Shown here: piece by piece, positions 1 through 27,086 of the stretch
Position numbering within the stretch: position 1 is the stretch's first letter
How the letters are laid out: each line of letters begins with the position of its first letter
Source of the DNA: a virus
Lineage: Duplodnaviria > Heunggongvirae > Uroviricota > Caudoviricetes
Reading direction: 5' to 3' (one strand)
IMG/VR virus record: IMGVR_UViG_649989947_000021
Length of the DNA: 37,504 bases
Notes under the pieces: model-generated
What the model saw: only the letters and a program-made list of their open reading frames with translations
Database searches by the model: none
What the model was told of the DNA's origin: nothing
Position numbers and translations under genes: made by a program

Positions 1-171
1 CTGACCGTACTCAACGTCCATACTGTAACGCCCGGCTTCATCCGGATTTTCTGAGGCCAGCGTGTTCACCACCACAGTGGTACTGTTACGTTTTGCTTTC
101 AGCTGGATTGTGCAGTTCTGTACCGGTTTTCCTGTGCCGTCTTTCAGTACACCTGAAATCTTTACTGCCAT
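1..171 (-). CDS. stf: side tail fiber protein Stf, N-terminal part (continues beyond window start)
   Basis: Minus-strand ORF with ATG at 171..169 translating MAVKISGVLKDGTGKPVQNCTIQLKAKRNSTTVVVNTLASENPDEAGRYSMDVEYGQ, matching the lambda Stf N-terminus as I recall it; sits after lom as in lambda; truncated by the window edge. Confidence 0.8.
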   Translation of the reverse strand, partial: MAVKISGVLKDGTGKPVQNCTIQLKAKRNSTTVVVNTLASENPDEAGRYSMDVEYGQ

Positions 172-182
172 ATTCACCCCAC

Positions 183-210
183 AAAAAAGCCCGCCTGAAC
201 CGGCGGGCTG
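183..210 (-). terminator. rho-independent terminator between lom and stf
   Basis: Minus-strand hairpin AGCCCGCC-GGTTCA-GGCGGGCT followed by TTTTTTGTG. Confidence 0.55.
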
Positions 211-231
211 TCATAACACTGTGTTACCTGG

Positions 232-834
232 CTAATCAGAATTTATAACCGACACCCACGATGAAACCGTCAGTGCGCCAGTCACCACTGCCGGAGCCTT
301 CATAAGCAATATCAATGGCCACGGATTCGGTCGGGTTAAACTGCACGCCAGCCCCCACGCCAGAGACGTGTTGCTGTGGCGACCGTCATCACTTCCGGTC
401 AGCACATCGTGCGTTTTCCCCTTGTTGTCAGTTACGCGGAGATAATCCCCGGAGAAAGTCGACACACGGCTGTAAGCCACACCCGCCATCGCATACGCGC
501 TGAACCATTCATTCACGCGTACAGACGGCCCCGCCATCACGCTGAACCAGCGGTTACGCACGGAATCTTCATGCCAGCGGGTATCGCTGTAACGGGTAAG
601 CTGGCGATTCTTGTCTCCTGCATAGCTGAATGACGTCACCAGCCCCAGCGTGTCCGTAAATTCATAACGGTATTTCACGTTAATCCCGTTAAGATTATCG
701 CTACCGGGAGCGTTCGTCCGGGCATGAAGATACCCCGCGCTCAGTGTGGACTGATGTTCAGACGCCCATGCAGGCGCACCGGATACGGACAGACAGATGG
801 CTGCGGACAAAATGGCTGCACAAACTTTACGCAT
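232..834 (-). CDS. lom: Lom outer membrane protein (Ail/Lom family)
   Basis: 200-aa ORF with signal peptide [24 protein letters not shown] and beta-barrel-like sequence; located immediately after J as in lambda; GAGG ribosome-binding site upstream. Confidence 0.9.
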
Positions 835-856
835 AATTACCTCTCGCTTTTCTGCA

Positions 857-882
857 ATAAAAAAGGCACCATTTCTGGTGCC
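857..882 (-). terminator. rho-independent terminator after J (tJ-like)
   Basis: Minus-strand hairpin GGCACC-AGAAAT-GGTGCC followed by TTTTTTATT, between J stop (904) and lom start (834). Confidence 0.55.
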
Positions 883-903
883 CTTATATGGGTTATAACA
901 ATT

Positions 904-2664
904 TCAACGAATACTGATGCCGGAAGCGGCTTTTTTGGTCACAATCACCGTACAGTCGGTGATATTGCCTGCCCACTGATTGCCTTTCTGGAAAATCTTA
1001 AACTCCAGAGTGACGCTACCACCACCACTAGGCATATCAATAACTGCACTGTAACTACCGGGAATGGCCCCTTTAGTTTCTCTGGATGCGATTAATACAC
1101 CGTTTTTGCGAACTTCAAAACCATAACCCGTGTAACTTGTACCTCCCGGGTTATTACCACTTCCCGGATAGCTATACGCTATTCCGTTAAAGATAATGGG
1201 CGGAATAATGATTTGACGGTCAAAGTTATGATCATCGCTGATGGTGACTGTAACCGTCCCGTTTGGTGTTTCCGTGTTACCCCATGTACCAGCCTGTTTC
1301 GGAAATGATTTGGATACAGCTTTAACGAAGTCACCTCTGACCTGAGTCGCCTCCAGCATGCCCTTAATCGTACAGTTTTCATTTACCGTGACATTGTTGA
1401 GCGTCCCGGCGTTCGCATTCACACTGCCACTGATATCCGCATTTTTAGCGGTCAGCTTTCCGTCTGATGTCAGGGAAAATACCGGAGGACTGCCACCGCT
1501 GGTAATTGTGGGAGCAATAAGGGTCTTAATCAGCGCTTCATTGATAAACGTCTGTCCCCCCTGCGTGACCAGTGCTGGAGTGGTGTTACCGTTCTCCGGA
1601 TTAATGAACGCAATCCTGTCTGCCGCCAGCAGCACCTGACTCTGCATACCGTCAGGGGTATTCTCAATACCGGCACCGATACCCGCAATGTAAAGGCGAC
1701 CATCCTGCATCTGCTGCAGTTTCACGGCCCACATACTGTTCAGGTTATTACTGGTGTCTGTCTGAACCTTTTGTATCTGCTGGATTGTTGCTTCCTGCTC
1801 GCCCAGTTTTTTGTCTGTCGTCGAGATGATTTCACTGCTTTTTTCATCCACATACTGACGAACCTGCGCAATCTGGCGTGCATTCTCCTCATTACTCTGA
1901 CTGACCGTTTGCGTGAGTTCGCTACTGACGTTGTCCACTTTCTGACTCACCTGGGATATGGCCAGTGACTGCTCATCATTTTTTTTAGCAACCAGCTGCG
2001 TGAGGCTGTTTTCAGTTTCCCCGATTTTTTGGGTCACCCCGGCAATATCACTCTCCAGTCGCTGATTGACCTCATCCTCCAGTTGCTCAACTTCACTGCG
2101 CAATGCAGAGGCATTAATACGATCATTCAGCTCCTGCCCCAGCAGGGTGCTGTTTATTTTCCCTTCAAAAAAATTGAGATACTCTTCAGGATTATTACCC
2201 GGCTGGCCGACAGCCTCCACGAATGCCGATTTGCCAACGGTATTCACACTGCGAACATAAAAGTAATAATCATGGCCCGGCTTAATATTCTGGCCGGAGG
2301 CTACCCAGTACAGTGCCGTACCAAGATAGCGGGCAGATTTGTCCACCTGTGAGACATCTGAAATCTTCGTTTCAGAAAACCAGAATTCAAACTGTACCGT
2401 CGGATCATAAACCGCAAGATGCGGCGTGGCGGTTATCTGAAAATAGCCCGGCGTCAGCTCAATCTGTGACGGCGCTGCCGGTGCGGCAATCCGGAACGAT
2501 ACCGACGCCGGATCGCCCTGCTGTCCCCGGGCATTTACCGCCCGGACTGTCAGCGTGTAACGCCCCAACGCCAGCTGCCTGAAGCGGTATGTGGTTTCCG
2601 TCGTCCGGGCCGTGCTGACCAGCCGCTCACTGCCGTCATCCGCTGCCACGGTCAGGCGAAGCAT
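904..2664 (-). CDS. J: host specificity (central tail fiber) protein J, C-terminal segment downstream of a frameshift
   Basis: 586-aa ORF beginning [17 protein letters not shown], which is the continuation of lambda J after ...[11 protein letters not shown]; FN3-like region, then a long Q/E-rich coiled-coil-like stretch and a C-terminal domain that does not match lambda J as I recall it. Confidence 0.85.
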
Positions 2665-4619
2665 AAAGCTCCCCCCTTCACCACCTTCGGCGTGTCCCAG
2701 CGCGCCAGCACCTGGTATTCCCCGCTGTCTGCGGTGACTTCTGCGGTCAGGTGCTGCACTGCTGGCGGCGTGACACCGTTCACCGTGCCACTCTGTTCGC
2801 CGTCAAAGTGCGCCCCGTTATCCACGATGGCCTCTTTTTCCGGCACATGCTGCACGGCGGTGATGGCATACGTGCCGTCGTCGTTCTCACGGATACTCAC
2901 GCAGCGGAACAGTCGCTGGCGCAGCGTCGGCAGCTTCAGCCCCCATACGCTGTATTCAGCAACACCGTCAGGAACACGGCTCACTTTTACCTTCACGCCG
3001 TCGGTGACGGACTGAACCTCCACGCTGACCGGATTGCCACTTCCGTCAACCAGGCTTATCAGCGTGGTACCGGAGGATGGCAGCGTGATTTCACGGTCGA
3101 GCGTCAGCGTCCGGGTCTGGCTGTTCACCGCCAGCACGCGCCCGCCGGTGCTGATACCGGCATAGTCATCATCGCAGATTTCAATGACATCGCCCGGTAC
3201 ATGGCGAAGCCCTTCAGCACCCACGCTGAAGTCCACGGTCTGCGTTTCCAGCAGTTCTGTTTTAATCAGCCACAGCCCGGCGCGGTGTGCCTGCCCCCGA
3301 CTGGTACAGCCAAAGGCATCCATCTTCGTGACGTTACGACCGTAACGGGCAATGGCCTGCGTGTCCTCCACAAGCTCTGTTGCCGTCTCCCAGCCGTTGT
3401 TCGGGTCAATCCAGTTCACCTCAACGGCATTATGGCGGTCCTTCAGGGCGCTGAAGCTGTAGCGGAACGGCGCGCCATCATCCGGCATCACCACATTACT
3501 GCGGTTATAGGTCCACACCTTATCCGACGGTCGGTCCTGCACGAACGTCAGCGTTTGCCCGTTCCATACCGGCATACAGCGCATCGCCGAGCAGAAATCA
3601 CTGAGCACATCCCACGCCTTGCGCTGTGTGGTCAGGTACGCATTACAGGTGATGCGCGGCTCCGTGCCGCCAAAGCCGTCCGGCACTGACTGGTCGCAGT
3701 ACTGGCCGATGACATACAGCGCCCATTTATCCACATCCGCCGCACCAAGACGTTTCCCCATGCCGTAGCGCGGATGGGTAAGCATATCCCACAGACACCA
3801 GGCCATGTTGTTGCTGTATGCCGGTTTTAACGTTCCGTCCCAGATACCGCTGTATTGTCGCGTCTGCGGGTTATAGTTCGACGGCACCTGCAGAATGCGC
3901 CCGCGAAGATGATAATTACGGCTCACCTGCTGGCTGCCGAACTGCTCCGAATCCACCTGTACGCCGACCAGTGCCGTGTTCGGGTAGCACTGTTTCACAT
4001 CGATGATTTCGGTGTATGACGACCAGAGCGTTTTGTTCTGCAGCTGGTCTGTGGTGCTGTCCGGCGTCATCCTGCGCATCCGGATATTGAACGGGCGCGG
4101 CGGCAGGTTACCCACCACCACCGATGCCAGATACTGTGAGGTGGTTTTGCCTTTAATGGTGATGTCTTTTTCCGTCACCCAGCCACCGTTACGTTGTATC
4201 TGAACCAGCAGGCGGACTTCCGACGGATTCCTGTCCCCCTTTGAGGTGGTTTCCACCAGTGCCTGCACACCGAAGGTAAAACGCAGTCGGTCAATGTTTG
4301 CCGACGTGATGGTCCGGGTGATCGGCGTGTCGTATTTCACTTCCGTACCCAGCACCGTCTCGGAGCCGGAGGATTCAAATCCCTCCGGCGGAGTCTGCTC
4401 CTGCTCACCAGCCCGGAACACCACCGTGACACCGGAGATATTGGTATTCCCCTCACTGTCCAGCACCGGCGTACTGTTCAGCAGCACGCTTTTTAATCCA
4501 TCCACCGGACCGTCAATCGGCCCTTCGCTGATGGCATCAATCACACTCAGCAGTTGCGTGGACTTCAGGTTGTCCTTCGCTTCGCGCGGGGTATGCCCCT
4601 TACTGCTTCCTTTGCCCAT
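2652..4619 (-). CDS. J: host specificity protein J, N-terminal segment upstream of a frameshift
   Basis: 655-aa [46 protein letters not shown]..., near-identical to the lambda J N-terminus by recall; ends ...[17 protein letters not shown] where lambda continues in-frame. Confidence 0.9.
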
Positions 4620-4679
4620 TCGTCATGCTCCATAAACGACAAAACCGCCCGGAGGCGGTTTCACATGAAATATTTTGCA

Positions 4680-5327
4680 TCAGCGGCCAATCACCACAAC
4701 CTGACCACCGTCCCCTTCATCTGCCGTGCTGATCTCCTGAGAAACCACACGAGACCCCACGCGCATTTCACCGTACAGAACAGGCAGAACATTGCCCTGG
4801 GCAACCATGTTATCCAGTGATGAGAAATAGGTGTTCTGCTTACCGTTATCCGTGCTGGTCGCTGTGGGCGTCCGGGCTTTCGGTGCCAGCATCTGGGCCA
4901 CACCACCCAGGATCATACTGGCCCCTGCCGCATACATGCCCGATACAGCCGCGGCACCCAGCCAGCCCACAGGGTTCCACCATGCCACCGCAATCAGCGC
5001 CGCCCCCAGCACCACCTGAAACACACCGCCACTTTTAGCTCCCGCCAGATGCGGCACGATGTGGATCACGGCACCATTTGCCAGCGGCTCATTAAGACGG
5101 GCAGATAATTCGGTTTCACCTGCATCACGCCCGGCAATGCGCACCTGATACCAGCCGTCATTCAGTTTCTGACGAAACGCCGGGAGCTGTGTGGACAACG
5201 CCCGGATGGCTTCAGCCCCCGTTTTTACACGAAGGTCGATGCGGCGGCCAAATCGTTGTAAATCCCCGTAAAGGCAGATGCGTGCCATGCCCGGTGACGC
5301 CAGAGGGAGTGTGTGCGTCGCTGCCAT
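4680..5327 (-). CDS. I: tail assembly protein I
   Basis: 215-aa ORF MAATHTLPLASPGMARICLYGDLQRFGRRIDLRV...; overlaps the K 3' end by about 100 nt, as lambda K/I do. Confidence 0.85.
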   Translation of the reverse strand: MAATHTLPLASPGMARICLYGDLQRFGRRIDLRVKTGAEAIRALSTQLPAFRQKLNDGWYQVRIAGRDAGETELSARLNEPLANGAVIHIVPHLAGAKSGGVFQVVLGAALIAVAWWNPVGWLGAAAVSGMYAAGASMILGGVAQMLAPKARTPTATSTDNGKQNTYFSSLDNMVAQGNVLPVLYGEMRVGSRVVSQEISTADEGDGGQVVVIGR

Positions 5328-5968
5328 TTGTCGGTATACCTCTCTCGTTTGCTCAGTTGTTCAGGAATATGGTGCAACAGCTCACCGTCGCCGCAGTAAA
5401 TGGCGGCATGATTCGGCACCGATGAACCAAAACAGCACAGCAGCACATCGCCCGGCTGCGCCGCTGACAACGGCACCTGATACAGCCCTGTGGCCTCCAG
5501 ATTATCCAGATAGAGATTCTGGCCGTTACACCACCAGTCATCCTCACGATGAAAGTCCGGCATCTCAATCCCCGCCAGATGATAAGCATCCCGGAACAGC
5601 GTGTAACAGTCCGTCACCCCGTGCTCAAAGCGCCGCCCGGTAAGATGCGGCACACAGCGGAATTTATGAATCTCACCCCGGCAGACCAGCCACCAAGGCA
5701 AATCGCTCTGCACCTGCAGCCGCCTGTCAGCCTCACTCAGCCAGGGCAGACCACCGGGGTGGCTGTGGACCAGCGCCACAATCTCACCCTGCATCTCTGC
5801 CCGCAGCCAGTCCTCCGGCGACATCCGGAAATACGCCTCCGGCTCACCGGAGATATTCACGCAGGGAAAATATCTTTCCCCTTCCGGCGTTCTCACCACG
5901 AAGCCGCACGACTCCGCTGGCGCACATCGCCGGGCGTGCGCCAGAATCTCTGATTCTGTCTGTGTCAT
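5225..5968 (-). CDS. K: tail assembly protein K (MPN/JAMM plus NlpC/P60 domains)
   Basis: ORF with HSHPGG JAMM-like motif and a C-terminal Cys/His NlpC/P60-like region; start chosen at ATG 5968 (MTQTESEIL...), 5 nt after the L stop; a shorter start is possible. Confidence 0.8.
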   Translation of the reverse strand: MTQTESEILAHARRCAPAESCGFVVRTPEGERYFPCVNISGEPEAYFRMSPEDWLRAEMQGEIVALVHSHPGGLPWLSEADRRLQVQSDLPWWLVCRGEIHKFRCVPHLTGRRFEHGVTDCYTLFRDAYHLAGIEMPDFHREDDWWCNGQNLYLDNLEATGLYQVPLSAAQPGDVLLCCFGSSVPNHAAIYCGDGELLHHIPEQLSKRERYTDKWQRRTHSLWRHRAWHASAFTGIYNDLAAASTFV

Positions 5969-5972
5969 GGGA

Positions 5973-6671
5973 TTACTGCGAAAGTTTGTTAATGGAAAGG
6001 AAGCCGCCAAAGTTGCCGACGTTATTGCGAAACTTACAGCCGCTCAGGCATTTGCTGCATTTATCCTTCGTGATATCGGACGTCGGCTGGTCATATTCAT
6101 CCGCGACAGCCGGACCGTGATAACCACACTCATCACCGCGATAGGTCCAGGTGCAGGTGTTGGCCAGCATGATACGCCCCGGAAAAACAGCACCATCCGT
6201 TTCCGTCGGTGTGGACAACACAAAGGAGGCACTGACCGCACTCAGTTCGCTGCACTGCTCGATGCGCCAGCGGCTGATCACCTCCTGCTCCGGATCGGCG
6301 TCGCTGTTTCCGTTGACGAAGTTCACCGCATCCAGAAAACGGGCGTAAACCTTACGCCTGACCACCGTTCCGCCGACCAGACTCTGCAGGTCTTCCGCCA
6401 TCCCCGTGACCATGCCGTGCAGGTTAGAAACCGTCAGTGTCGGACGGGCAGCACTGCCCTTGCCGTTCAGTTCAAATCCTGTCCCCTGAATGGGGTATGC
6501 CTGATACTGCCGCCCCTGCCAGGTAACCGGCTCACCTTTTTCGTTCTGCTCATTACAGAAAAAATAACGTTCACCACCGACCTCTGTCAGATCGATTTCC
6601 CAGAGCACCACCTGGGCTGACTGAGTGAGGCGTGTCGTCTCATGATGTGTTTCCTGTGGAATATCCTGCAT
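5973..6671 (-). CDS. L: minor tail protein L
   Basis: 232-aa ORF MQDIPQETHHETTRLTQSAQVVLWEIDLTEVGGERYFFCNEQ..., lambda L-like by recall. Confidence 0.9.
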   Translation of the reverse strand: MQDIPQETHHETTRLTQSAQVVLWEIDLTEVGGERYFFCNEQNEKGEPVTWQGRQYQAYPIQGTGFELNGKGSAARPTLTVSNLHGMVTGMAEDLQSLVGGTVVRRKVYARFLDAVNFVNGNSDADPEQEVISRWRIEQCSELSAVSASFVLSTPTETDGAVFPGRIMLANTCTWTYRGDECGYHGPAVADEYDQPTSDITKDKCSKCLSGCKFRNNVGNFGGFLSINKLSQ

Positions 6672-6680
6672 CAGAGCCTC

Positions 6681-7011
6681 CTATGCCACGACCTGTTCAA
6701 AATCTGCCGTTATGGTTACCCACAGCGCCCCCACGCTTGCCGACCATTTACGACAAACCACCCTAATCGGTTTCCAGTCATAAGGTGGCGTCCACTGAAA
6801 TGCGCGGACGCCACCGTGCCGTTCCAGAAAGGCTTTTTAAAGATGGGTGTTCACATTTACGAACACGTATCGTCACGCTGTAAGTCGACAACTGGTTATT
6901 CAGTCCCGCCGCACGACGCTGTTCATAACCATCGCCCAGCTTCACTGTCACCACTTTCGGCTCTGATACCACATTCATATCCGGGCGCACTTTCCAGTGA
7001 AACGTCTCCAT
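6681..7011 (-). pseudogene. M: minor tail protein M, interrupted by a +1 frameshift in an A5/T5 run
   Basis: N-terminal frame (6778..7011, METFHWKVRPDMNVV...TYSVTIRV) is M-like, then diverges; the M-like C-terminus (KAFLERHGGVRAFQWTPPYDWKPIRVVCRKWSA...ADFEQVVA, stop at 6683..6681) lies in the adjacent frame; the junction is at the T5 run 6834..6838. Confidence 0.8.
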
Positions 7012-10000
7012 TACCGATATGCTCCACTTAACCGACCACCATCACGGGCCTGCTGTTGCATAAAGTCCGCTGCCGCTTTTATCCCGAGGTCATAAACCGC
7101 CTTCAGGGCAGCCGGACCTATCTGCCCGTTCGTGCCATCGTTATTGATCTCGATGTTGTACTGCGGGGAAAACATCGCCATACCTGAACCCCCAATATCC
7201 GCCACCCCCCCCAGCTTACCGTCAGCACCACGACGCAATGGCAGAATGGCTTCAGGTCCCGCTTCCCCCATCACACCCGCGCCTTTTGCAAAAGCAAAAA
7301 ACGTCGGACGGTTAACCACCGTGCCACTGTAGCGACTCAAATCAGCCGACTGATAAACACCGCCATCAGCATTGGCTACAAAATCAAAAGGCAGCGCGGA
7401 AGCAATGCCTTTTACCGCTTTCATTAAAGCTATCTGAGCCATGATTCTGGACATATCTGACAGCACAGAAGAAGTAAAAGATTTGAAATTGAGTTTGCCT
7501 GTAGTACAGAATGTCGCCAGCCAGTCACTCATGCTACTGAACGCAGACGTGAACAACTGTTCCACTGTCCAGGCTGTGTTATCCGCATTCTCAGTGACAT
7601 TCTGGAGTGCACGCAGGACTCCGTTTTTCCAGTTACCCTGAGCAATTTCAAGCTGTTGCCAGTAACGGCGATTCTCATTCAGTTGTCGGTTCAGGCTCTC
7701 CGTCAGCGCCTGCTCGGCCTTTCTGTAGTCATCCGTGTTATATGTCCCTTTCTGCTCACTATCCCGCCTCAACTGCTCCAGCTGTTGCTGGTATTTCTGA
7801 CGAAGACTCAGTTGTACCTGATATCGCTGCCGCTGCTGATCACCCATACCCACCGTGGCGATATCCAGATTATGTTGTTGACGCTGAGCACGCTCTTCTT
7901 CAGCCAGTTGACTGGTCAGCTGAATTGTTTTTTTCTTCAGCTCGTTGAGTGCCGTCTGTTTCTGAAGCTCCTGCTGTTTTACATCCAGCAGCGTCAGTGC
8001 CTGAATCAGTTCATCTTTACGGGCCAGCACACTCTTTTCATCTGCCGTCAGTTTTTTCCCGTCCAGGTCGCTGATGCGCTGCTGCAGAGCCAGAAGCTGT
8101 TTATGCGCTTCTGTCATCCTTTCCGTGGCAATGCCTGCTGACTGTCTGGCAGCAGCAATCTGTCCTTCCACCTGTGCCTGTTGCTGACTGTACTGCAGCA
8201 ATAACCGGGTGGCCTCATCATTACGGGTTTCGCGTGTTTTTTTCTTACCGGATGCCAGGGCTTTCTCGTAACGTTCATTTTCACGTTGTATCGCCGCATC
8301 CCTGACAGTCTGATCGGCGTACTGCATGGCATTAATACGCGCAATTTCACGCTGATGTCGTGCTGCTTCCGTTTCATTCATCCGGTTCAGTGCAGCATTT
8401 TCAGCATTACGGCGTTTCTGTTGCTCCTGATAATTCCGCTCTGCCTGCTCTTTTGCATCCTGCAAATCCTTCTGGCGTTTTTTTTCCTGAAGCTCGTTAA
8501 GACGCTGCTGATCGTACTCAACCTGAGAAGATGATGCCGTCCAGGGGAGTCTTTTCGCCCGCGACACTTTCTCCTGTAAAGCGGAAATCTGTTCATCCAG
8601 CGAGTCTTCACGACCAATATTCATGGCCGCATCCCAGAAACGACTCCATAAATCAGACAGATACTTCAGCGTACTGCCCAGCGCATTGAGGTTATTATCA
8701 ATATCCGCAGTACGCCGACCGGTTTCCTCTGCCAGTGCAGACATGGCTATCCGTGCCGCATCACTGGACCGCCCCTGTTCCCCAAGGACGCGTATCTGCT
8801 CAAGCTGAGTGGCAGTAAGAAAATGCAGCTCATTGTCCAGAGCCTTCGCGGCATTTACAGGATCATCCTTCAGCCGCTTAAACTGACTTATGGTATCGCT
8901 GACCGACTGGCCAACCGATCGCTCCATCTGTGCGGCAGCTCTCGCCACCATACCGATATCGTTTCCACGAAATGCACCACTCCCCACCACCTGAGCCAGC
9001 GCACCGGCTGCAGCATGTTGCGTGATACCATTCCCGGAAATAGCACGACTGAGCGTCCACAGCTGCCCGGCAGTGACTCCGGCATAATGCCCCGTCAGCG
9101 ACAGCTGGCGGTTAAATTCTTCCCCCTCCTTCTGACCGTCATACCAGGCTTTACCCAGACCATAGACAGCTGCGGCAATACCGCCAATAACCCCGCCCAG
9201 CATCATGCCTTTCGGTGACATCAGTGTGTCTATCCATCCGGCACGGTTAGCCAGCGTTATCCCGGATCCCCTCAGCGCCCCTAAATTGCCGCGGGCCAGT
9301 TCACCTATCAGAACGCCTATCTCCTGGCGGGCCGCTGCACTTTTCAGACCCAGCGAATGCGTGGCTTTTCCTGCCTGCTCCATTTTGCGGATATACACTT
9401 CTGCAGCACTGCTTACCCCCAGCTGGGCAGCCTTAGCACGAAGCAACTCAGAAGATGAAAGATTCTGGCGGGTTGCCTGCTCTTTAAGCTGACGGATAAA
9501 CGCCACTTTCTGTCGGGTACCCTCTTCCTCAGCCTGTGTAAGAACACGGGTTTTCGCCGTAACCTCAGAAATCAGCGCCAGATAATCCTGCTGACCAATC
9601 CCGCCACTGTTTCTGGCCTGTCGGATCTGCTGCTGAATACGCTGTAATTCCTGCAGCCCCGCACTGGCCTGTTTCACACTGTCAATCTGACGATAAAACG
9701 CAGCAGCCGCTTTATCCTGAGCCTCCGCCAGAGCCATGGCCTGCGCCTGTTCCTCGCGCATTTTCTGGCTCAGCGCCTCCATGCGCTGGCGGGTTTTCTC
9801 CACCTCGCGGGCCATGCGTTCATGAGCCTGTGCGTTCTTCTCCACCGTCTGCGCATGGACGGATGCGGCTGTTGCAGCCGAAGAAGCCGCCTGCGTTGTC
9901 TGCCGGGCGGCCTGAGTCTGACGCTCCATAAAACGCTGCATACGGGCAGAAGACCGTTCTGCATCGCTGGCTGCACCATTCAGAAGGTTTTTGATACGGG

Positions 10001-10067
10001 GGATTTCATTTTTAAACTCTGCCGCATCAATCCCCAAATCAATGACCAGGTTGGCTATCTGGTCCAT
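7011..10067 (-). CDS. H: tail tape measure protein H
   Basis: Approximately 1018-aa coiled-coil-rich ORF whose C-terminus (...NNDGTNGQIGPAALKAVYDLGIKAAADFMQQQARDGG...) matches lambda H by recall; start set at ATG 10067 (MDQIANLVIDLGID) with GGAGG 8 nt upstream; the ORF track start at 10097 is TTG. Confidence 0.9.
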   Translation of the reverse strand: MDQIANLVIDLGIDAAEFKNEIPRIKNLLNGAASDAERSSARMQRFMERQTQAARQTTQAASSAATAASVHAQTVEKNAQAHERMAREVEKTRQRMEALSQKMREEQAQAMALAEAQDKAAAAFYRQIDSVKQASAGLQELQRIQQQIRQARNSGGIGQQDYLALISEVTAKTRVLTQAEEEGTRQKVAFIRQLKEQATRQNLSSSELLRAKAAQLGVSSAAEVYIRKMEQAGKATHSLGLKSAAARQEIGVLIGELARGNLGALRGSGITLANRAGWIDTLMSPKGMMLGGVIGGIAAAVYGLGKAWYDGQKEGEEFNRQLSLTGHYAGVTAGQLWTLSRAISGNGITQHAAAGALAQVVGSGAFRGNDIGMVARAAAQMERSVGQSVSDTISQFKRLKDDPVNAAKALDNELHFLTATQLEQIRVLGEQGRSSDAARIAMSALAEETGRRTADIDNNLNALGSTLKYLSDLWSRFWDAAMNIGREDSLDEQISALQEKVSRAKRLPWTASSSQVEYDQQRLNELQEKKRQKDLQDAKEQAERNYQEQQKRRNAENAALNRMNETEAARHQREIARINAMQYADQTVRDAAIQRENERYEKALASGKKKTRETRNDEATRLLLQYSQQQAQVEGQIAAARQSAGIATERMTEAHKQLLALQQRISDLDGKKLTADEKSVLARKDELIQALTLLDVKQQELQKQTALNELKKKTIQLTSQLAEEERAQRQQHNLDIATVGMGDQQRQRYQVQLSLRQKYQQQLEQLRRDSEQKGTYNTDDYRKAEQALTESLNRQLNENRRYWQQLEIAQGNWKNGVLRALQNVTENADNTAWTVEQLFTSAFSSMSDWLATFCTTGKLNFKSFTSSVLSDMSRIMAQIALMKAVKGIASALPFDFVANADGGVYQSADLSRYSGTVVNRPTFFAFAKGAGVMGEAGPEAILPLRRGADGKLGGVADIGGSGMAMFSPQYNIEINNDGTNGQIGPAALKAVYDLGIKAAADFMQQQARDGGRLSGAYR

Positions 10068-10389
10068 AACGCACACCTCCGGAAATACCTTCCCCAAGAT
10101 GCATCAGTTCTTCGTCCGTTCGCTCCGGTATCCCGTTCTCTTCCGGTAAAAGGCTGAAATCAGCCACCGCAGCATCACTGCTGCCGGACACCATTCTCAC
10201 GATCAATGCCTTCAGCGAGGCAAACTGCGCATCCATCCACACATCACTGAAGCTCTGCATCCGGAAATAATCGCCCCACTCACCAAGCTCAGTGGCCGAC
10301 ATTTCCGACAGCATCCGCCGCCAGTCTGCCCGCCGGAACTCCCGGGCAAGCCGCATGACAAACTGCATTTCCCGCGTCAGGACTTTTCC
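10039..10389 (-). CDS. T: T-frame part of the G-T tail assembly chaperone, expressed by -1 frameshift from G
   Basis: ORF in the -1 frame relative to G, open only from 10401 downward, overlapping the G 3' end and the H start; same arrangement as lambda G/G-T. Confidence 0.7.
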   Translation of the reverse strand, partial: GKVLTREMQFVMRLAREFRRADWRRMLSEMSATELGEWGDYFRMQSFSDVWMDAQFASLKALIVRMVSGSSDAAVADFSLLPEENGIPERTDEELMHLGEGISGGVRYGPDSQPGH

Positions 10390-10766
10390 GGCGTCAGCGC
10401 CTCATGCTCATCATCCCCGGCATTATCAATGGTCCCCATACCGCTCAGCGACAGAACCATCTCCGCCCCCGCACCCAGGGCATCATACGACCATGTTGTA
10501 ATAACGGATGCGCAAAGCGTCTCTACATCCTTAGACTGATCCGCATTCCACTGTGAGCGGGAAACCAGCCAGGCATTGATATCCATCCCCATCCGCAGAA
10601 AAGCAATCTGTCGTTCAGCCTCCGGCAGTTCTCCCTCTTCGGCATCAAACTTTGCCGTTCGCTGCTGAACAAACGCCAGATATTCAATTCTCTGCAGCCC
10701 GGACAGCTCACTGAGCACCACGGACTGCTTTTCATAATTAAACGTGCCCTGTTTCAGAAACATCAT
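10377..10766 (-). CDS. G: tail assembly chaperone G
   Basis: ORF ...MMFLKQGTFNYEKQSVVLSELSGLQRIEYLAFVQQ... ending EALTPEKS; start at ATG 10766 with GGTGGAG upstream (ORF track start at 10805 is TTG and overlaps the terminator). Confidence 0.85.
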   Translation of the reverse strand: MMFLKQGTFNYEKQSVVLSELSGLQRIEYLAFVQQRTAKFDAEEGELPEAERQIAFLRMGMDINAWLVSRSQWNADQSKDVETLCASVITTWSYDALGAGAEMVLSLSGMGTIDNAGDDEHEALTPEKS

Positions 10767-10776
10767 GTTCTCCACC

Positions 10777-10803
10777 TGAAAAAAAGCCCCGGATAACCGG
10801 GGC
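10777..10803 (-). terminator. hairpin plus U-run between V and G (attenuator or terminator)
   Basis: Minus strand GCCCCGG-TTAT-CCGGGGC followed by TTTTTTT, immediately upstream of the G ribosome-binding site. Confidence 0.5.
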
Positions 10804-10823
10804 AAATGATGAGTATCGTCCTG

Positions 10824-11567
10824 TTAACCTGCGGCGCTGACAGCCACCGCAGCCACTGCCACAAAATCGCCGTCAGAAGTCATGCCCACAATGCTGACAC
10901 TGCCCTGCTTCACGCCTTTCACCGTGGCCACAAGCCCGTTCAGGGTCACCGTGGCAGTCTGTGGATCTGTCGAATGCACACTGATCGCTTTGTCACTGGC
11001 TCCGTCAGGTTTTACTGTAAAGGTCAGCGTGGTGGTTGCTCCCACTTTTACACTGGCAGATGCCGGTGCCACCGTCAGCCCGGTAACGCCCACAGTTTCA
11101 GTGCCCTCCTCTGCCAGATACGGACGCCCCACACCGCTGATTTTCACTGTGCGGGTCATCACGTCTTTTGAGGCAATGGTTTTACCCAGTGAGCTCAGCC
11201 AGCCACGGAAAACATCAACAGTGCCGTTGGGATATTTGATACGAAACGCGCAGACTTCACCGGAGTCGAACAACTGAACCAGTTTTTTCTGCCCGCTGTC
11301 ACCCGGACGCCAGGCCAGCGTCGCCGAAGTATCACCAACGGATTTCTGCCCCTGGGTTGTCGTTTTCCAGTCTGCATCTTCATCATCGAGATAAGTGTCA
11401 TCTTCTGCATCAGCGGTCATTTCGCCAGGTTGCAGATCCTTCACCATCGCAAGACGCAGCCAGTCAGTGTCCGACAAAGGGTTCGCAAATGCGTCGCCGT
11501 TGCCGGTATACATCCAGAACGTCGTTCCCGCACCTTTCGTTTTTGCCAGTGGATTTGGTGTGGTCAT
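10824..11567 (-). CDS. V: major tail protein V with C-terminal Ig-like domain
   Basis: MTTPNPLAKTKGAGTTFWMYTGNGDAFANPLSDTDW... is lambda V-like; AAGGAGG ribosome-binding site before ATG 11567; C-terminal Big_2-like segment. Confidence 0.9.
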   Translation of the reverse strand: MTTPNPLAKTKGAGTTFWMYTGNGDAFANPLSDTDWLRLAMVKDLQPGEMTADAEDDTYLDDEDADWKTTTQGQKSVGDTSATLAWRPGDSGQKKLVQLFDSGEVCAFRIKYPNGTVDVFRGWLSSLGKTIASKDVMTRTVKISGVGRPYLAEEGTETVGVTGLTVAPASASVKVGATTTLTFTVKPDGASDKAISVHSTDPQTATVTLNGLVATVKGVKQGSVSIVGMTSDGDFVAVAAVAVSAAG

Positions 11568-11577
11568 TACCACCTCC

Positions 11578-11979
11578 TTAATTCGTGTACGTGATCTGGT
11601 ACGTGATTTCCGCCATCGCCCAGGTGGCCATCTCATTATCACGTTGATAGTTAAAACCGAGTGGGATCAGGGTGTCGATGAGTCCGGAAAGTGCCGGTAC
11701 ATCATTCAGGGCCGGGAAAATGGTGCTCTCCATCCACATATCCAGCTCTGAATCCGGTGCTTGTGCCCGGATGAAGACAGCAATATGCAGAACAGCCTGC
11801 CAGTCATCTTCATCCGTCATTTTTCCGGTGTACTGAGCATCACTCAGCCACACCGACACGGCAGGCAGTTCCTGCGCATCAACAAATGCCGGAAGCCCGT
11901 CAAAAAACGTGGCGCTGTCTCCACACTGTTCCCGAAGGCGTGCCAGTACGACCTGGCGGATTTGTGTATGTCGGTTCAT
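11578..11979 (-). CDS. U: tail terminator protein U
   Basis: MNRHTQIRQVVLARLREQCGDSATFFDG..., lambda U-like; ATGA overlap with the Z stop. Confidence 0.85.
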   Translation of the reverse strand: MNRHTQIRQVVLARLREQCGDSATFFDGLPAFVDAQELPAVSVWLSDAQYTGKMTDEDDWQAVLHIAVFIRAQAPDSELDMWMESTIFPALNDVPALSGLIDTLIPLGFNYQRDNEMATWAMAEITYQITYTN

Positions 11980-12554
11980 CGGGTCAGCCATAACCTCAGT
12001 TGTTGTTTCAGTGCATAACCCAACTGTTTCGGCATTTCCGCAGCAATGATGCGGTCGCGGGCATCTTCAAATGCCTGTGTCAGCGGTCCGGACAACGGGA
12101 TTTTCACCACATCAATGGGGTAACGATTTTTGCCATCAATACGCCGCATCACATGCCAGCGACCATTCGCCAGTTGCTGAATAAACGCATCCCGGAAAAG
12201 ATATTTACCCACCTTCAGCACACTGCCACGGTACTGCAGTTTTCCACCACGCCGGGCCAGTCTGACCCGGGCTGTCCCCAGCTTAATGGCGGGCAGATTG
12301 CCCCGGTTGACGCGGATCCTGGCCGTCATTTTTCCTGACGGACTGGCTTTAAACACCCGGACACGCTGACGTACCAGTTTCAGGGGTATCCCTTTCACCT
12401 GGTTATCTCCCGCAACGGTATTCCCGGCAACCTGCCGGGTGGCAACCGAGACCGCTTTCTGTGCCACACGGTTTATCGCCCATGCGCTGGCCTGTGGCAC
12501 CATACGGGTATCAAGGCTGTTCAGATTGCGGATGGCATTCTCAAGCCCCTTCAT
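11976..12554 (-). CDS. Z: tail completion protein Z
   Basis: 192-aa ORF, same length and position as lambda Z. Confidence 0.8.
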   Translation of the reverse strand: MKGLENAIRNLNSLDTRMVPQASAWAINRVAQKAVSVATRQVAGNTVAGDNQVKGIPLKLVRQRVRVFKASPSGKMTARIRVNRGNLPAIKLGTARVRLARRGGKLQYRGSVLKVGKYLFRDAFIQQLANGRWHVMRRIDGKNRYPIDVVKIPLSGPLTQAFEDARDRIIAAEMPKQLGYALKQQLRLWLTR

Positions 12555-12565
12555 CCCACACCTCT

Positions 12566-12841
12566 TTACTCAATAAAGATCATTGGCTTACCGTTAAAGC
12601 GTTCATGCCGTGTGACCGTCCAATGTTGTCCGTCATAAACAACGCGATCCCCGCGCCGTGGGCGGTATCCCAAAGAAAACACCACCAGAGAGACAGCAGG
12701 TCCGGACAGAGCATTCAGCTCTGCCAGTGTTTCGCCCGGGATCACAGCCATATCGACATCATTAATCGAGGCTGTCTTTCCCATCTTTCTGACCGTGATC
12801 GCATCCATACGCGCTGCCAGCCGAGAAAAGGGATCAGACAT
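12566..12841 (-). CDS. head-tail joining protein (FII-like)
   Basis: 91-aa ORF located between the head module and Z; assignment is mainly by position and size. Confidence 0.5.
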   Translation of the reverse strand: MSDPFSRLAARMDAITVRKMGKTASINDVDMAVIPGETLAELNALSGPAVSLVVFSLGYRPRRGDRVVYDGQHWTVTRHERFNGKPMIFIE

Positions 12842-13157
12842 TGAGTTTTACCGGCACTTCTTCTGCACTGGTTCCGGCATCTGCCCAGACAACCCCGACC
12901 AGCGGATCAGAGCCGCTGTTAGTCAGCTGAACTTTTCCGGACTTCAGATAAACCTTCTTACCCGTTTTCATGTCATCCGTTTTCAGCTTAGGCAGGATAA
13001 ACACACCTTCGGTCATGCCGTCGCCTGTTTCACCCTGTGGAATATCGGTCAGCGCCACCGCAAAAACATCACCCACCTGCACCAGATCTCCGCTGCTGAT
13101 GGCTGCACTGGCAACAATCGCCACCGTTTTTCCTTCTTCTACAAAATTCTTTGCCAT
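12834..13157 (-). CDS. small capsid-associated protein (possible head decoration or stabilisation protein)
   Basis: ORF MAKNFVEEGKTVAIVASAAISSGDLVQVGDVF... with GGAG 7 nt upstream of ATG 13157; immediately follows the capsid gene; family assignment uncertain. Confidence 0.45.
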   Translation of the reverse strand: MAKNFVEEGKTVAIVASAAISSGDLVQVGDVFAVALTDIPQGETGDGMTEGVFILPKLKTDDMKTGKKVYLKSGKVQLTNSGSDPLVGVVWADAGTSAEEVPVKLNV

Positions 13158-13243
13158 AACTGTCTCCGCACAGCCCCGTTCAGGGGCTGATTTCAGGTAC
13201 AAAAAAAGCCCTTACGGGCCATCAGAGTTGTTGTCTGCGACGT

Positions 13244-15202
13244 TTACGCCGTACATTTCACCAGACCGCGGTGATCAACTGGCGCGACACCGGCGTCAAT
13301 ACGCACTTTCGTTGTCACGCCATCCACACTGAAGCCCTCCATCTGATCAATATATGGCGTATCCACACCGTTGAGATAAGCCACTTCAATCGTATCGGAG
13401 CCTTTGGACGCAGCCAGGTAGAAGGTGGTCTGGCTGTTATCATCAAGACGAGGCTCTGCAATAACGGTCGCAAAATCTTTCACCGGGTTAATAATACCGG
13501 CGTTAATGTCAGCCCCCTTGACACTTGAGGAGCGAATGACCTGGTTAGCAACAGACTCCATCGCCGTCGGTACCAGTACGAACGCAGGACGAATATTCAG
13601 ATGACGCTCCCCCTCTTTCTGAACGCGCATCAACTGGCGGGCTTTATCCAGCGATGCCACGTCCATTGCAGCGCTCTCCAGTACGTTTGCATGTTTCGCT
13701 TTATCGAACAGACTTACATTATCTGTGGAGATTTTCGGGTTAGACGTCAGAATGGCATAAACCAGATCGGCAATAGTGGATTTCGCCGCACGGCCCAGTT
13801 TCATCGGGACATCGGTCAGCATATTCAGATCATCATTGATAATGGCCTGACGGGTGATACTGAACAGCTCGCCATAGGTCGCCAGTGCAATAGTGGCCTG
13901 TTTATCTCCGGTGGTGACGTATTTATATTCCGCCCCTTCACGCACCTGACGCAGAGCACTGAAGCCCCCCATACCCACACGATGGGCAATTTTAAAATCA
14001 GACAACTGACCTTTCCGCGTCCACTGTTCATAGGTTTCAGGGGCATCTTCCCAGCCCTGCAGAATGGCTTTGTTCGCAACATCCAGCAGAATATTACCGA
14101 AGTCAGACGTACTGTGTGTGAACGCCGCACCGACCATCTGCATCGGGTTATAACTGGAAACCCCAATACCCCGTTCAGTCAGTGACATACGGGCATATTC
14201 ACGCAGGGTCATCCCGTTGTAGACATTATCACGTTCGGTTTTTTCAAATCCGGCACGCGCCATCAGCGCCTGGCGGATCCCGTCCCCCACAAAATTACCG
14301 TTACCGGCATAAATATGAGCCGGGGTATTTTTATTGGATGGCGTGGACTCGCGCCCCATCTCGTTCAACAACTTTTCGCGGGCCTGCTCCAGCGAACATT
14401 CAGGATCGGCAAGACACTGAGCCTGCAGCGTCTGATAACGCCCGCCAAACATGGCAAACAGATCATTAATACCGTTTACACGCGCTTTTTGCTCTGCCAG
14501 TACCTGCGCACGGATACTGTTTTCATCCACCACGGGTGCTGCTGCCTGCACTGGCGTCCGGGAGGCTGCAGGTTCATCATCCTGTACGCATGGAGCACTG
14601 TTGCGTGGCGGAGTAATCATGTTTCGAATGGATTCCGGCATCTTTTTAAATTCCTCTGTACGTTTTGACTGAATACATGCCATTGCCTTAACGGCTGGCG
14701 TTACCTGATCAGCAAATCCCTGTGCCAGACATTCGGCACCGGACATCCAGGTCTCATCCGCCAGCATGGCAGCAATTTCATCGGTGGTTTTCCCGGTTTT
14801 CTGTGCATAAGCGGGTAACAGAACCGCCTCAACCTTATCGAGCAGGTCGGCATAGGTGCGCATGTCCTCCGCATCACCGCCCGTAAAGCCAAATGGTTTA
14901 TGAATCATCATGAAGGTGTTTTCCGGCATAATGACCGGGTTTCCCACCATCGCAATGACCGACGCCATTGACGCCGCCACACCGTCGACATAAACGGTAA
15001 TGGACGCACCATGTGTTTTCAGCGCATTAAAAATGGCGATGCCTTCAAAGACATCGCCACCCGGTGAATTAATATGGAGATTAATGTGGGTGATATCGCC
15101 CAGTGCATTCAGATCACTGATAAACTGCTTCGCTGTAACACCCCAGAAACCAATCTCGTCATAAATATAAATATCCGCGTCACTCTGGTGACCAGCCTGC
15201 AT
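13244..15202 (-). CDS. prohead protease (ClpP/S49-like) - scaffold - major capsid protein fusion
   Basis: Long ORF: N-terminal ...ADIYIYDEIGFWGVTAKQFISDL...HINSPGGDVFEGIAIFNAL...ASMASVIAM is ClpP-like; Ala/Gln-rich linker; C-terminal half is capsid-like; start set at ATG 15202, just after the portal stop. Confidence 0.8.
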   Translation of the reverse strand: MQAGHQSDADIYIYDEIGFWGVTAKQFISDLNALGDITHINLHINSPGGDVFEGIAIFNALKTHGASITVYVDGVAASMASVIAMVGNPVIMPENTFMMIHKPFGFTGGDAEDMRTYADLLDKVEAVLLPAYAQKTGKTTDEIAAMLADETWMSGAECLAQGFADQVTPAVKAMACIQSKRTEEFKKMPESIRNMITPPRNSAPCVQDDEPAASRTPVQAAAPVVDENSIRAQVLAEQKARVNGINDLFAMFGGRYQTLQAQCLADPECSLEQAREKLLNEMGRESTPSNKNTPAHIYAGNGNFVGDGIRQALMARAGFEKTERDNVYNGMTLREYARMSLTERGIGVSSYNPMQMVGAAFTHSTSDFGNILLDVANKAILQGWEDAPETYEQWTRKGQLSDFKIAHRVGMGGFSALRQVREGAEYKYVTTGDKQATIALATYGELFSITRQAIINDDLNMLTDVPMKLGRAAKSTIADLVYAILTSNPKISTDNVSLFDKAKHANVLESAAMDVASLDKARQLMRVQKEGERHLNIRPAFVLVPTAMESVANQVIRSSSVKGADINAGIINPVKDFATVIAEPRLDDNSQTTFYLAASKGSDTIEVAYLNGVDTPYIDQMEGFSVDGVTTKVRIDAGVAPVDHRGLVKCTA

Positions 15203-15215
15203 CCTGAACCAGGAA

Positions 15216-16724
15216 TTATTCTTCGGACTGGTCGTCGGTGTGCTGTGGCTCCTGTCGTTTCGTTGCGGCACTGCTGCCTCCTTTATCACTGGCCGGATCG
15301 GTATCAAATACCAGATCCAGCTTGCGGTTTTCATCAATTTCGGCCTTGCGCCGACGTTTGACATCATCCGGATTACGACCACCTGCACGTACCCAGTCTG
15401 ATTCTGTCGCCGCTCCACCACGAATCTGGATTTTCCAGGCCTCAGCCTCCTTAACAGGGTCAATCCACGGCATCACTGGTCCGGAATACACCGCGGTATA
15501 CAGTGAAGAACGGTCAAGATCGCGGGGTAGCCTGATAACACCGGATGCCACAGCCTGTTTCAGCCAGGCACGATACATCGGGCGGGTGACGGCACCAATA
15601 AACCAGTCCTGCAGGATCAGGTAGCCATCAGTAGACTCAACCAGTTCCTGACGCTGGGCGCTGTAAGTGCCGTTATAGTTGCGTGCCGTACTGGAAAAAC
15701 TCAGACGACTGCCCGCCGCCACGGCACGCAACTGACCATTACGAAAAGTTTCAAGGTTAGGATTGGGACGATCCGACTTCACCATTCCGATTTCTTCGCC
15801 GGGTTTCAGATCGTCGTAAATAATGCCTGGCTGAATGGTAAGCTCGCGTTCATTCTCCTTGCTGCCATTACCATCCGGTTCATAGCTCTGCCCGTCGCCT
15901 TTCCGGATGTACATCCCCAGAGCAGCGGCGATCCTTGCTGCAGTCAGCTCAGAATCTTCATACTCTTTCAGGGCACTGAGGCGGATCAGCACACCGGACA
16001 ACAAAGACGTCCCGCGCATCTGGTGCAGACGGCGAACAAATTTAAGATGCAGCATTCGCTCTGCATCCACTTCTTTGGTTTCCATCTGCCGCCCGGATAC
16101 GGGACGGCTTTTATACACCAGATATTTTTCGGGACGCCCCCAGTCATCAACAAACACGCCCTGATTCAGCCTGTTGCTCTCATCACTGGTCATGGGAATA
16201 AAGTCCGGCTCGAGCGCCTCCAGCCAGAAATGAACACCGGCAGAAGGCGTCAGGCTGTTTATGCGCCCGGAAACCATCTGGGCAAACACCTCACCATCGC
16301 GCAGCCAGGTACGCAGCATCAGACGTTCCAGCATCGGACGGGTAAACTGCCCGGTGACTTCCGGACTGACAGACCATTCACTCCATCGGGTGCGTATCTC
16401 CGCTGCCAGATCACGGGCAATGGCCCCATTGCGTAATACCGGATGTGGCTCGACAATAATCCCGTTTTTCCCCACCACCCGTTCTTCCAGCTTGTCAAAT
16501 ACACCAATAACCAGATCGTGGTTGTTATCAAGGTAACGGGCCTGCTCACGTAACGACACGGCCCCGTACTGGCTTAACTGGTCGGCAGTTCGGTTTTCCC
16601 GCCGGGCTTTGTGTGTCCGCGTCGTTTTTACGGCCTCATAAGCCTGGATCACCGCACGGGAACGCAGCCTTGCCGCTTTCCATCCTGGTGAAAAAACGCC
16701 AATCACATCATCAAGAATTGCCAT
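15216..16724 (-). CDS. portal protein
   Basis: Approximately 502-aa ORF between W-like gene and protease-capsid gene; start at ATG 16724 (MAILDDVIGVFSPGW...) overlapping the W stop by 1 nt. Confidence 0.85.
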   Translation of the reverse strand: MAILDDVIGVFSPGWKAARLRSRAVIQAYEAVKTTRTHKARRENRTADQLSQYGAVSLREQARYLDNNHDLVIGVFDKLEERVVGKNGIIVEPHPVLRNGAIARDLAAEIRTRWSEWSVSPEVTGQFTRPMLERLMLRTWLRDGEVFAQMVSGRINSLTPSAGVHFWLEALEPDFIPMTSDESNRLNQGVFVDDWGRPEKYLVYKSRPVSGRQMETKEVDAERMLHLKFVRRLHQMRGTSLLSGVLIRLSALKEYEDSELTAARIAAALGMYIRKGDGQSYEPDGNGSKENERELTIQPGIIYDDLKPGEEIGMVKSDRPNPNLETFRNGQLRAVAAGSRLSFSSTARNYNGTYSAQRQELVESTDGYLILQDWFIGAVTRPMYRAWLKQAVASGVIRLPRDLDRSSLYTAVYSGPVMPWIDPVKEAEAWKIQIRGGAATESDWVRAGGRNPDDVKRRRKAEIDENRKLDLVFDTDPASDKGGSSAATKRQEPQHTDDQSEE

Positions 16725-19032: not shown

Positions 19033-19040
19033 TATTCCTC

Positions 19041-19568: not shown

Positions 19569-19744
19569 AAGCAACTCCATCTGGCAGGTGAAAATCATGT
19601 TTATTTATATATTTCAATTAATTGTAAACTGGTCTAATGACAGGGAGAAAAAAATATTGTACAGGTAAAAAGAGAAATAACTTTTAATTATCAATAAATT
19701 ACCAAACATGCTGCCGCCGCCATGGAAATGCAAAAACTAGCCTT

Positions 19745-27085: not shown

Positions 27086-27086
27086 C

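Follow-up and report, generated by a model that had tools for sequence, protein, structure and literature searches.

Is the tail-tip gene of this lambdoid prophage dead, or is its sequence wrong? In a 37,504-nt stretch of Caudoviricetes DNA (IMG/VR record IMGVR_UViG_649989947_000021; hereafter "the window"), the gene for J, the tip attachment or host specificity protein, is encoded in two pieces that meet at a run of G, and an earlier note on this DNA offered both answers: the prophage has lost a working tail-tip gene, or a homopolymer was misread in sequencing. Comparison of the locus with related prophages indicates that the J frameshift is very probably genuine, and not a sequencing slip.

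A one-base frameshift divides J within its first Ig-like domain

The gpJ pseudogene as a whole spans 3716 nt (904..4619, minus strand), and a direct reading of the sequence agrees with the earlier claim that a frameshift of one base, in a G run, splits it. The site is a G6 homopolymer at 2671..2676 on the minus strand, and the sequence letters confirm that CCCCCC on the plus strand is GGGGGG on the coding strand; in intact relatives the site reads G7 or GGGGGTG. The N-terminal J open reading frame (ORF; 2652..4619, minus strand; 655 aa) ends at a TGA stop at 2654-2652, with its final five residues, ALCFA, out of frame. The C-terminal J reading frame (904..2664, minus strand; 586 aa), listed from an internal ATG at 2664-2662 and starting MLRLTV, is in the -1 frame relative to the N-terminal one. 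As encoded, gpJ is thus not read in one uninterrupted frame, changing frame at 2671-2676 and stopping at 2654-2652. Insertion of one G rejoins the halves, as had been proposed, into a single 3717-nt ORF of 1238 aa, and alignment bears out that lambda J reads KVVKGVSFLLRLTV at the site, matching the repaired protein. The repaired J is 98.5% identical at the amino-acid level, end to end, to the intact gpJ of E. coli A25.

Six domains lie in order across the two ORFs: FNIII-A_GpJ, Phage-tail_3, Ig_J, Ig_J_second, Phage_Tail_Tip and Ig_GpJ_C. The N-terminal ORF encodes FNIII-A_GpJ and Phage-tail_3, which belong to the tail-tip hub, and the first part of Ig_J (profile positions 1-40 of 104), and its residues 1-651 align to residues 1-651 of the lambda gpJ chain 8iyk_J. 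The C-terminal frame resumes Ig_J at positions 45-104 and continues with Ig_J_second, Phage_Tail_Tip (the central fibre) and Ig_GpJ_C (the receptor-binding domain), and the break lies in the middle of the first Ig-like domain, Ig_J. Because the full ordered gpJ domain set is present and the repaired protein aligns end to end with A25 gpJ, the two ORFs are no chance pattern. Against the NCBIfam model NF049904 (lambda_TipJ), which has a curated whole-protein cut-off of 1950 bits, the repaired J scores 2275.4 bits; the fragments as encoded score 1474.7 and 778.8 bits, each below the cut-off. The gene also occupies the J position of the lambdoid tail operon (H-M-L-K-I-J-lom-stf), as judged from the ORF order in the window, the orthologous regions of phage cdtI and strain E2348/69, and the called genes of L147.

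Lambda J (NP_040600; structures 8IYK, 8K35 and 8XCG) belongs to the same family and has the same domain order, and lambda and the window share the synteny H-M-L-K-I-J-lom. The repaired J is 83% identical to lambda J over 1126 aligned residues, but lambda J is intact, with AAG GGC GTG AGT and no homopolymer at the site, and its 1132 residues differ from the 1238 of the repaired window J in the C-terminal part. The closest deposited phage genome is that of the inducible phage cdtI (AB285204), which is 99.25% identical over window positions 2203-19764 and whose tail and head genes follow the same order. Its J (orf18) is intact (1165 aa) with GGC GTG at the site, and its C-terminal receptor-binding part diverges from that of the window, with 94.9% identity and many indels over window positions 1-1839. 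The split J of phage vB_EcoS-569R4 was set aside as unrelated, its break lying elsewhere (at about residue 406).

The G6 allele recurs in independently sequenced genomes

Over positions 1-10619, the window matches contig ADUL01000068.1 (GCA_000183005.2) with 100% identity. At least eight further E. coli genomes, sequenced independently, have the G6 run with identical flanks; they comprise E2348/69 and at least seven other assemblies (GCA_900448265.1, GCA_002466345.1, GCA_965140055.1, GCA_000249155.2, GCA_000249055.2, GCA_000249195.2 and GCA_000249175.2), and at least eight other independent assemblies also encode the same 655-aa product with its out-of-frame tail. Four separate assemblies of E2348/69 all carry G6 and encode this product, and RefSeq labels the gpJ of this strain "frameshifted". 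That pseudogene (E2348C_RS28990; NC_011601.1 1078256-1081970) lies in the torS-torT lambdoid prophage of this EPEC O127:H6 strain, has G6 at the same codon and is 99.2% identical overall to the window J. No difference separates the two genes over 92 nt upstream and more than 600 nt downstream of the G run, and 27 of their 31 differences fall in a recombination patch at 2778..3069 (minus strand). A second close copy, in UFZD01, differs from the window by 3 mismatches in 9.2 kb. This flank identity and near-identity argue for identity by descent of the G6 allele. G6 is also found on a more divergent J background (L008), suggesting that contraction or miscall can recur independently and slightly weakening an argument based purely on descent.

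A homopolymer miscall would mean that J is intact in the strain, with G7 or GGGGGTG at the site, the draft having under-called one base. Such an error is made more credible by the J site being one of the four C/G runs of at least six in the window, and by two more private homopolymer-length frameshifts on the same contig, in M and lom. However, an artefact should occur in a single assembly and be missing from its nearest relatives, whereas the same G6, flanks and 655-aa product occur in at least eight other independently deposited assemblies and in the four of E2348/69, and the closest relatives of the window haplotype are all G6. The exact G6 66-mer of the window is found in only 4 of the 3,804 E. 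coli records carrying the segment, all four of them E2348/69, so miscalls at this site are uncommon in finished genomes. Nor is the assembly generally indel-ridden, since its early region aligns to that of a close relative, E. coli F719, with 0 gaps in 12,036 nt. We consider a miscall in J very unlikely: recurrence of G6 and its flanks in independent assemblies points to a genuine lesion, and this sharing, the identical product and the RefSeq label support the dead tail-tip gene. The worry about homopolymer error fits the frameshifts in M and lom better than that in J.

Further lesions in the window and in other G6 carriers

The minor tail protein M (6778..7011, minus strand) is truncated to 77 aa, against 109 aa in relatives, by an A4-to-A5 change at 6834-6838 (TTTTT on the plus strand) that is private to the window's assembly. 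The gene lom, encoding an Ail/Lom outer-membrane protein (232..834, minus strand), has a 1-nt deletion at 352-356, where the plus strand reads C5 and relatives read C6 or TC4; this puts its final ~39 residues out of frame, and the C5 allele is absent from the nearest relatives. Neither M A5 nor lom C5 is present in the 99.95%-identical UFZD01 copy, and M A5 is also absent from the NJMD01 copy, which ends short of lom. Since both frameshifts are missing from copies of at least 99.9% identity, homopolymer miscalls in this draft are possible, and the two frameshifts may be sequencing or draft-assembly errors; the M truncation is either a second tail lesion or an error of this kind. The flagged J frameshift is very probably real, while its unflagged neighbors in M and lom look like draft-assembly errors. 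The tape measure gene H (7011..10097, minus strand) is intact as a 1028-aa ORF. The prophage also has an IS10-like insertion. The contrast between 0 gaps per 12 kb in the early region and three homopolymer frameshifts in the late region is not statistically decisive.

The late region of the E2348/69 prophage is almost identical to window positions 1-17500, but its lesions differ: M and lom are intact, J has a second frameshift (A8 to A7 at window position 1986), and the tape measure gene is frameshifted at the position matching window 7955. The early regions are also unlike, that of E2348/69 being lambda-like and that of the window resembling Stx2f-type phages and E. coli F719. Among the other G6 carriers, the UFZD01 copy has an IS66 element inside J and the AIFA01, AIEV01 and AIFB01 copies have other 1-nt indels, whereas no second lesion is seen in the NJMD01 and CBCSKR01 copies over the sequence parts covered. 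With these two copies, decay after inactivation is not seen in every carrier, and we rejected as too strong the statement that every G6 carrier has extra lesions. The Sp lambdoid prophages of O157 Sakai have frameshifts, deletions and IS insertions in morphogenesis genes (PMC2669165). The J, M and lom frameshifts and the IS10-like insertion of the window are lesions of this type, although the Sakai elements are other prophages in another strain background.

G7 as the probable parent of G6

The commonest intact allele at the site is GGGGGTG, which encodes Gly-Val (K-G-V-S, the residues of lambda) and is found as an exact 67-mer in 765 E. coli records; G7, encoding Gly-Gly (K-G-G-S), is a minor allele found in 14. 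Counts in IMG/VR are at least 120 for GGGGGTG, 12 for G7 and 3 for G6, and scanning the GTDB species representatives, one genome per species, with a 25-mer gave no match to the G6 allele. We rejected G7 as the wild type, as most 98.5% matches spanning the 67 nt are GGGGGTG. The earlier note had taken G7 as the intact form, which is correct for the nearest intact neighbor of the window haplotype and incorrect for the commonest intact allele.

We infer that the mutation arose by slippage and that G7 was its direct parent allele, with one G lost from a slippage-prone run (AAG GGG GGG AGC to AAG GGG GGA GC). G7 is the likely parent because the nearest non-G6 haplotypes to the window are G7 (L022, L012, L017 and A25), and because the G6 of E2348/69 has a G7 twin (L013) whose flanks are the same over ±600 nt. 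A real G6 could also derive from GGGGGTG by deletion of the T, in which case the G7 copies would be frame-restoring revertants of G6 that gained a G. This route takes one step, starts from what is by far the most frequent allele, and draws on two GGGGGTG haplotypes (L124 and L105) with only 1-3 differences from the window downstream of the run. It is at odds with the G7 state of the nearest haplotypes overall and with the exact-flank G7 twin; moreover, G7 is found on many different flanking haplotypes and G6 on few, so that G6 looks nested within G7 diversity. In slipped-strand mispairing, contraction of a run of seven is far commoner than loss of a unique base. We judge T deletion unlikely, and favor a G7 parent. 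A single Val-to-Gly codon change would then have made the G7 tract, later a mutational weak point.

Predicted consequences of the break and probable spread of the allele

Translation of the G6 allele would change frame after Gly-653 and stop six codons on. Because the break is inside the first Ig-like domain, the predicted 655-aa product would keep the tail-tip hub and would lack two Ig domains, the central fibre and the C-terminal receptor-binding domain. By analogy with lambda biology, the prophage would be unable to assemble, with its own J, a tail competent for adsorption, and the expected phenotype would be a lack of infectious particles. Co-resident lambdoid prophages could, again by analogy, complement J in trans; trans complementation has been reported for other defects among the O157 Sakai prophages (PMC2669165).

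Could J still be functional, either through -1 ribosomal frameshifting on G_GGG_GGA or with the halves made separately and assembled? In the N-terminal frame, G GGG GGA formally fits X_XXY_YYZ, and slipping by -1 would yield precisely K-G-G-S-F-M; for restart, the ATG at 2664-2662 overlaps the upstream stop region and stands behind the SD-like GGGGGGAG, with GGAG 4 nt upstream. G-rich motifs can serve as internal SD sequences, but the heptamers efficient in E. coli do not include G_GG.G_GG.N, G_GG.G_GG.U being the lowest measured at 0.018%, and G_GG.G_GG.A is absent from the efficient motif lists (PMC4066793). In the 101 nt 3' of the run we found no stimulatory structure (minimum free energy -31.6 kcal/mol against a shuffle mean of -35.7; z = +1.32), and the two-frame arrangement is unconserved, with 765 + 14 in-frame records against 4 with G6. 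Programmed -1 frameshifting was rejected on these grounds of poor motif efficiency, no downstream structure and no conservation. A functional split fares no better, as carriers gather further frameshifts and an IS element in J and a beta-sandwich Ig domain is an unlikely place for a break. Overall, a J that still works is extremely unlikely.

The account that we hold to be highly probable, taking origin and spread together, is that an inherited loss of one G inactivated J in a decaying lambdoid prophage. The lesion would have arisen in an ancestor of a late-gene module resembling cdtI and the E2348/69 torS-torT prophage, and would have spread to related E. coli strains by descent and by recombination between prophages. 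Several carriers would later have gained different second hits, as expected without selection on J. The J break is an ordinary inherited pseudogene, already known, and has little importance beyond annotation. There, as a true lineage marker of an immobilised lambdoid prophage family, which in E2348/69 and relatives carries type III effector cargo, it should be given a pseudogene annotation rather than be "corrected".

The run might instead act as a reversible switch, a +G slip restoring the tail gene set and remobilising the effector-carrying prophage, with the G7 copies partly footprints of reversion. As in homopolymeric-tract contingency loci, a coding-region tract occurs with the same flanks at in-frame (G7) and out-of-frame (G6) lengths, both being present on one haplotype (L013 and E2348/69, respectively). 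Unlike such loci, the J tract is a minority allele derived from a Val-to-Gly change and not a conserved feature, and several of the OFF (G6) copies carry further irreversible lesions. We think a switch quite unlikely. If true, it would apply where no tail lesion other than G6 is visible, as in the NJMD01 and CBCSKR01 copies, and the window would also qualify, provided that the frameshifts in its M and lom are errors of assembly.

Tail-tip gene J is split by a one-base frameshift

In this lambda-like prophage J occupies the usual position in the lambdoid tail operon order H-M-L-K-I-J-lom. Direct reading of the minus strand at the J break gives ...CCG AAG GTG GTG AAG GGG GGA GCT TTA TGC TTC GCC TGA, with a run of six G at 2676-2671 (CCCCCC at 2671-2676 on the plus strand). 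The upstream ORF (N fragment; 2652..4619, minus strand) encodes 655 aa and the downstream ORF (C fragment; 904..2664, minus strand), in frame -1 relative to the upstream one, encodes 586 aa; adding one G to the run produces a single ORF of 3717 nt and 1238 aa, which we call repaired J. Lambda J reads ...KVVKGVSFLLRLTV... at the matching site, encoded AAG GGC GTG AGT. An earlier note had described this split, and we re-read the run, both ORFs and the one-base repair in the sequence and found all of its elements correct.

The N fragment matches FNIII-A_GpJ, Phage-tail_3 and positions 1-40 of the 104-position Ig_J profile, and its first 651 residues align to residues 1-651 of lambda tip attachment protein J, whose structure has been solved (8iyk_J). 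The C fragment matches Ig_J positions 45-104, Ig_J_second, Phage_Tail_Tip and the receptor-binding Ig_GpJ_C. Since Ig_J is divided between the fragments, the break lies inside the first Ig-like domain, leaving the tail-tip hub on one side and the central fibre with the receptor-binding domain on the other. As encoded, the fragments score 1475 and 779 bits, both below the NCBIfam lambda_TipJ cut-off of 1950 bits, while repaired J exceeds it at 2275 bits. Repaired J shows 98.5% identity with the intact gpJ of E. coli A25, 92.4% with its counterpart in the inducible phage cdtI and 83% with that of lambda. J is also annotated as two CDSs (406 and 749 aa), split at another site, in phage vB_EcoS-569R4 (ON470598.1; L004 1406-4901), which may reflect a further frameshift in J or a misassembly in what is presumed to be a viable phage.

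The six-G allele is shared by related prophages

Over its first 10.6 kb the window matches contig ADUL01000068.1 of a draft assembly (GCA_000183005.2) at 100% identity, and this draft is accordingly its source. Seven other assemblies, all with six G (G6) at the J site, encode the exact 655-aa product, out-of-frame tail included, and/or the exact 586-aa C fragment: GCA_900448265.1 (on a 5.1-Mb contig), GCA_002466345.1, GCA_965140055.1, GCA_000249155.2, GCA_000249055.2, GCA_000249195.2 and GCA_000249175.2. The copy in GCA_900448265.1 shows 3 mismatches to the window in 9.2 kb. An exact search for the G6 66-mer in 5,426 complete E. coli genomes matched just four, all of them separate assemblies of EPEC O127:H6 strain E2348/69, whose gpJ is already annotated in RefSeq as a 'frameshifted' pseudogene. 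E2348/69 J is 99.2% identical to window J, with no differences over a stretch that begins 92 nt upstream of the G run and extends more than 600 nt downstream of it. Most of their differences (27 of 31) fall within a 292-nt patch at 2778-3069, where the window equals A25 between flanks identical to E2348/69; this patch looks like a short gene-conversion tract within the pseudogene.

The early half of the window has no indels in 12,036 nt relative to E. coli F719, and its assembly is therefore not generally indel-ridden. Shared descent best accounts for a rare allele that recurs in the closest relatives through many independently deposited assemblies. Of the two options in the earlier note, a dead tail-tip gene or a homopolymer sequencing error, this recurrence favors the former and speaks against the latter: J has very probably been pseudogenised by a real, inherited single-base contraction.

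The sequencing-error caveat belongs more properly to two other tail-region alleles, which we compared with cdtI, E2348/69 and the near-identical copies on UFZD01 and NJMD01 contigs. In M (minor tail protein; 6778-7011, minus strand), A4 has become A5 at 6834-6838, leaving 77 aa versus 109 aa in all four relatives; none of 1,775 E. coli records matches this allele exactly. In lom (Ail/Lom; 232-834, minus strand), one nucleotide is lost at 352-356 (C5 versus C6 or TC4 in relatives), which puts the last ~39 residues of the beta-barrel out of frame within an ORF of seemingly normal length (200 aa). The lom 68-mer recurs in 25 of 4,623 E. coli records, the 25 being of unrelated serotypes, which marks the site, judged by this distribution, as another recurrent slip site. 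Neither allele occurs in the closest relatives of the window's draft, so each reflects either a very recent mutation or a miscalled homopolymer; if real, the M allele is a second tail lesion.

Likely origin of the contraction

Among 67-nt matches at the J site, Nissle 1917 and most others carry GGGGGTG (Lys-Gly-Val-Ser, the residues found in lambda). Exact 67-mers with GGGGGTG occur in 765 E. coli records and with G7 (Lys-Gly-Gly-Ser; e.g. A25, EcPF14) in 14, and the exact G6 66-mer occurs in 4; by 25/26-mers, IMG/VR contigs give at least 120, 12 and 3, respectively. Around the run, the haplotypes closest to the window are G6 (L009, L010), followed by G7 (L022, L012, L017, A25), and L013 pairs G7 with flanks identical to those of the E2348/69 G6 sequence over +/-600 nt. 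The simplest path would be a T>G substitution (Val to Gly) converting GGGGGTG to G7, followed by slipped-strand contraction to G6. A direct loss of the T from GGGGGTG, which would make G7 a revertant, is a possible route with less support, given that the window's nearest non-G6 haplotypes are G7. A more divergent J (L008) also has G6, and its genome carries a G7 copy (L014) as well; the run has therefore probably contracted more than once.

We also considered expression of full-length J from the G6 allele. The N frame at the run reads G_GGG_GGA, and a -1 slip there would yield exactly the G7 protein. However, G_GG.G_GG.N heptamers are absent among efficient E. coli motifs, with G_GG.G_GG.U giving the lowest value of those measured (PMC4066793); the 101 nt after the run show no more stable folding than shuffled sequences (z = +1.32), the out-of-frame layout is not conserved, and G6 carriers gain further lesions. 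We therefore reject -1 recoding. Translation restart at an internal ATG behind an SD-like GGGGGGAG is conceivable; its product would start within a beta-sandwich domain.

Predicted consequences and further lesions

Judging from lambda, a J without everything past residue ~650 would supply no central fibre and no receptor binding, and we infer that the prophage could not build infectious tails from its own J. Additional lesions differ between carriers, a pattern consistent with release from selection. E2348/69 and the AIFA01 copy share an A8 to A7 contraction in J at window position 1986, and in E2348/69 the tape measure gene is frameshifted too. The UFZD01 copy (L145 9275-11890; GCA_900448265.1, UFZD01000005.1) carries an IS66-family element with three ORFs in the C-terminal part of the frameshifted J, at window ~1399-1406, and further single-nucleotide indels occur in the AIFB01 and AIEV01 copies. 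In the parts covered, the NJMD01 and CBCSKR01 carriers have no lesion besides G6. Frameshifts, deletions, IS insertions and complementation by co-resident prophages are well documented for lambdoid prophages of pathogenic E. coli (PMC2669165), and the J lesion is an unremarkable instance of prophage decay at a vulnerable homopolymer. The window itself retains T8 at 1979-1986 in J (A8 on the coding strand), the site shortened in E2348/69 and AIFA01, and an intact C8 at 7205-7212 in the tape measure gene H (G8 on the coding strand); both are likely further slippage hot spots.

Mosaic structure of the prophage

By sequence comparison, the prophage is a mosaic. Its late region (1 to ~19.7 kb) resembles cdtI and the E2348/69 prophage, while its early region (23890-35925) is 99.84% identical to a prophage of F719 and ~98.6% identical to Stx2f-phage early regions. 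With late and early regions having different relatives, one dead J module has been joined to different early modules across strains. The window contains no stx genes and no tRNA genes, whereas F719 has four tRNAs between Q and holin. Position 1 of the window lies 2 nt in from the end of ADUL01000068.1, and the left edge (1-231) is in the start of the side tail fibre gene (phage_tail_N), where the contig probably broke because tail fibre genes recur among co-resident prophages. Cargo beyond the fibre genes (nleB2, nleC and nleD in E2348/69) therefore falls outside the view. Comparison with F719 places an IS10-like element of 1329 bp (22561-23889) within a hypothetical gene downstream of the Q antiterminator. 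The element encodes a 402-aa IS4-family transposase (ORF 22574-23782, minus strand) and is flanked by the 9-bp target duplication GGCCTTGTA at 22552-22560 and 23890-23898.
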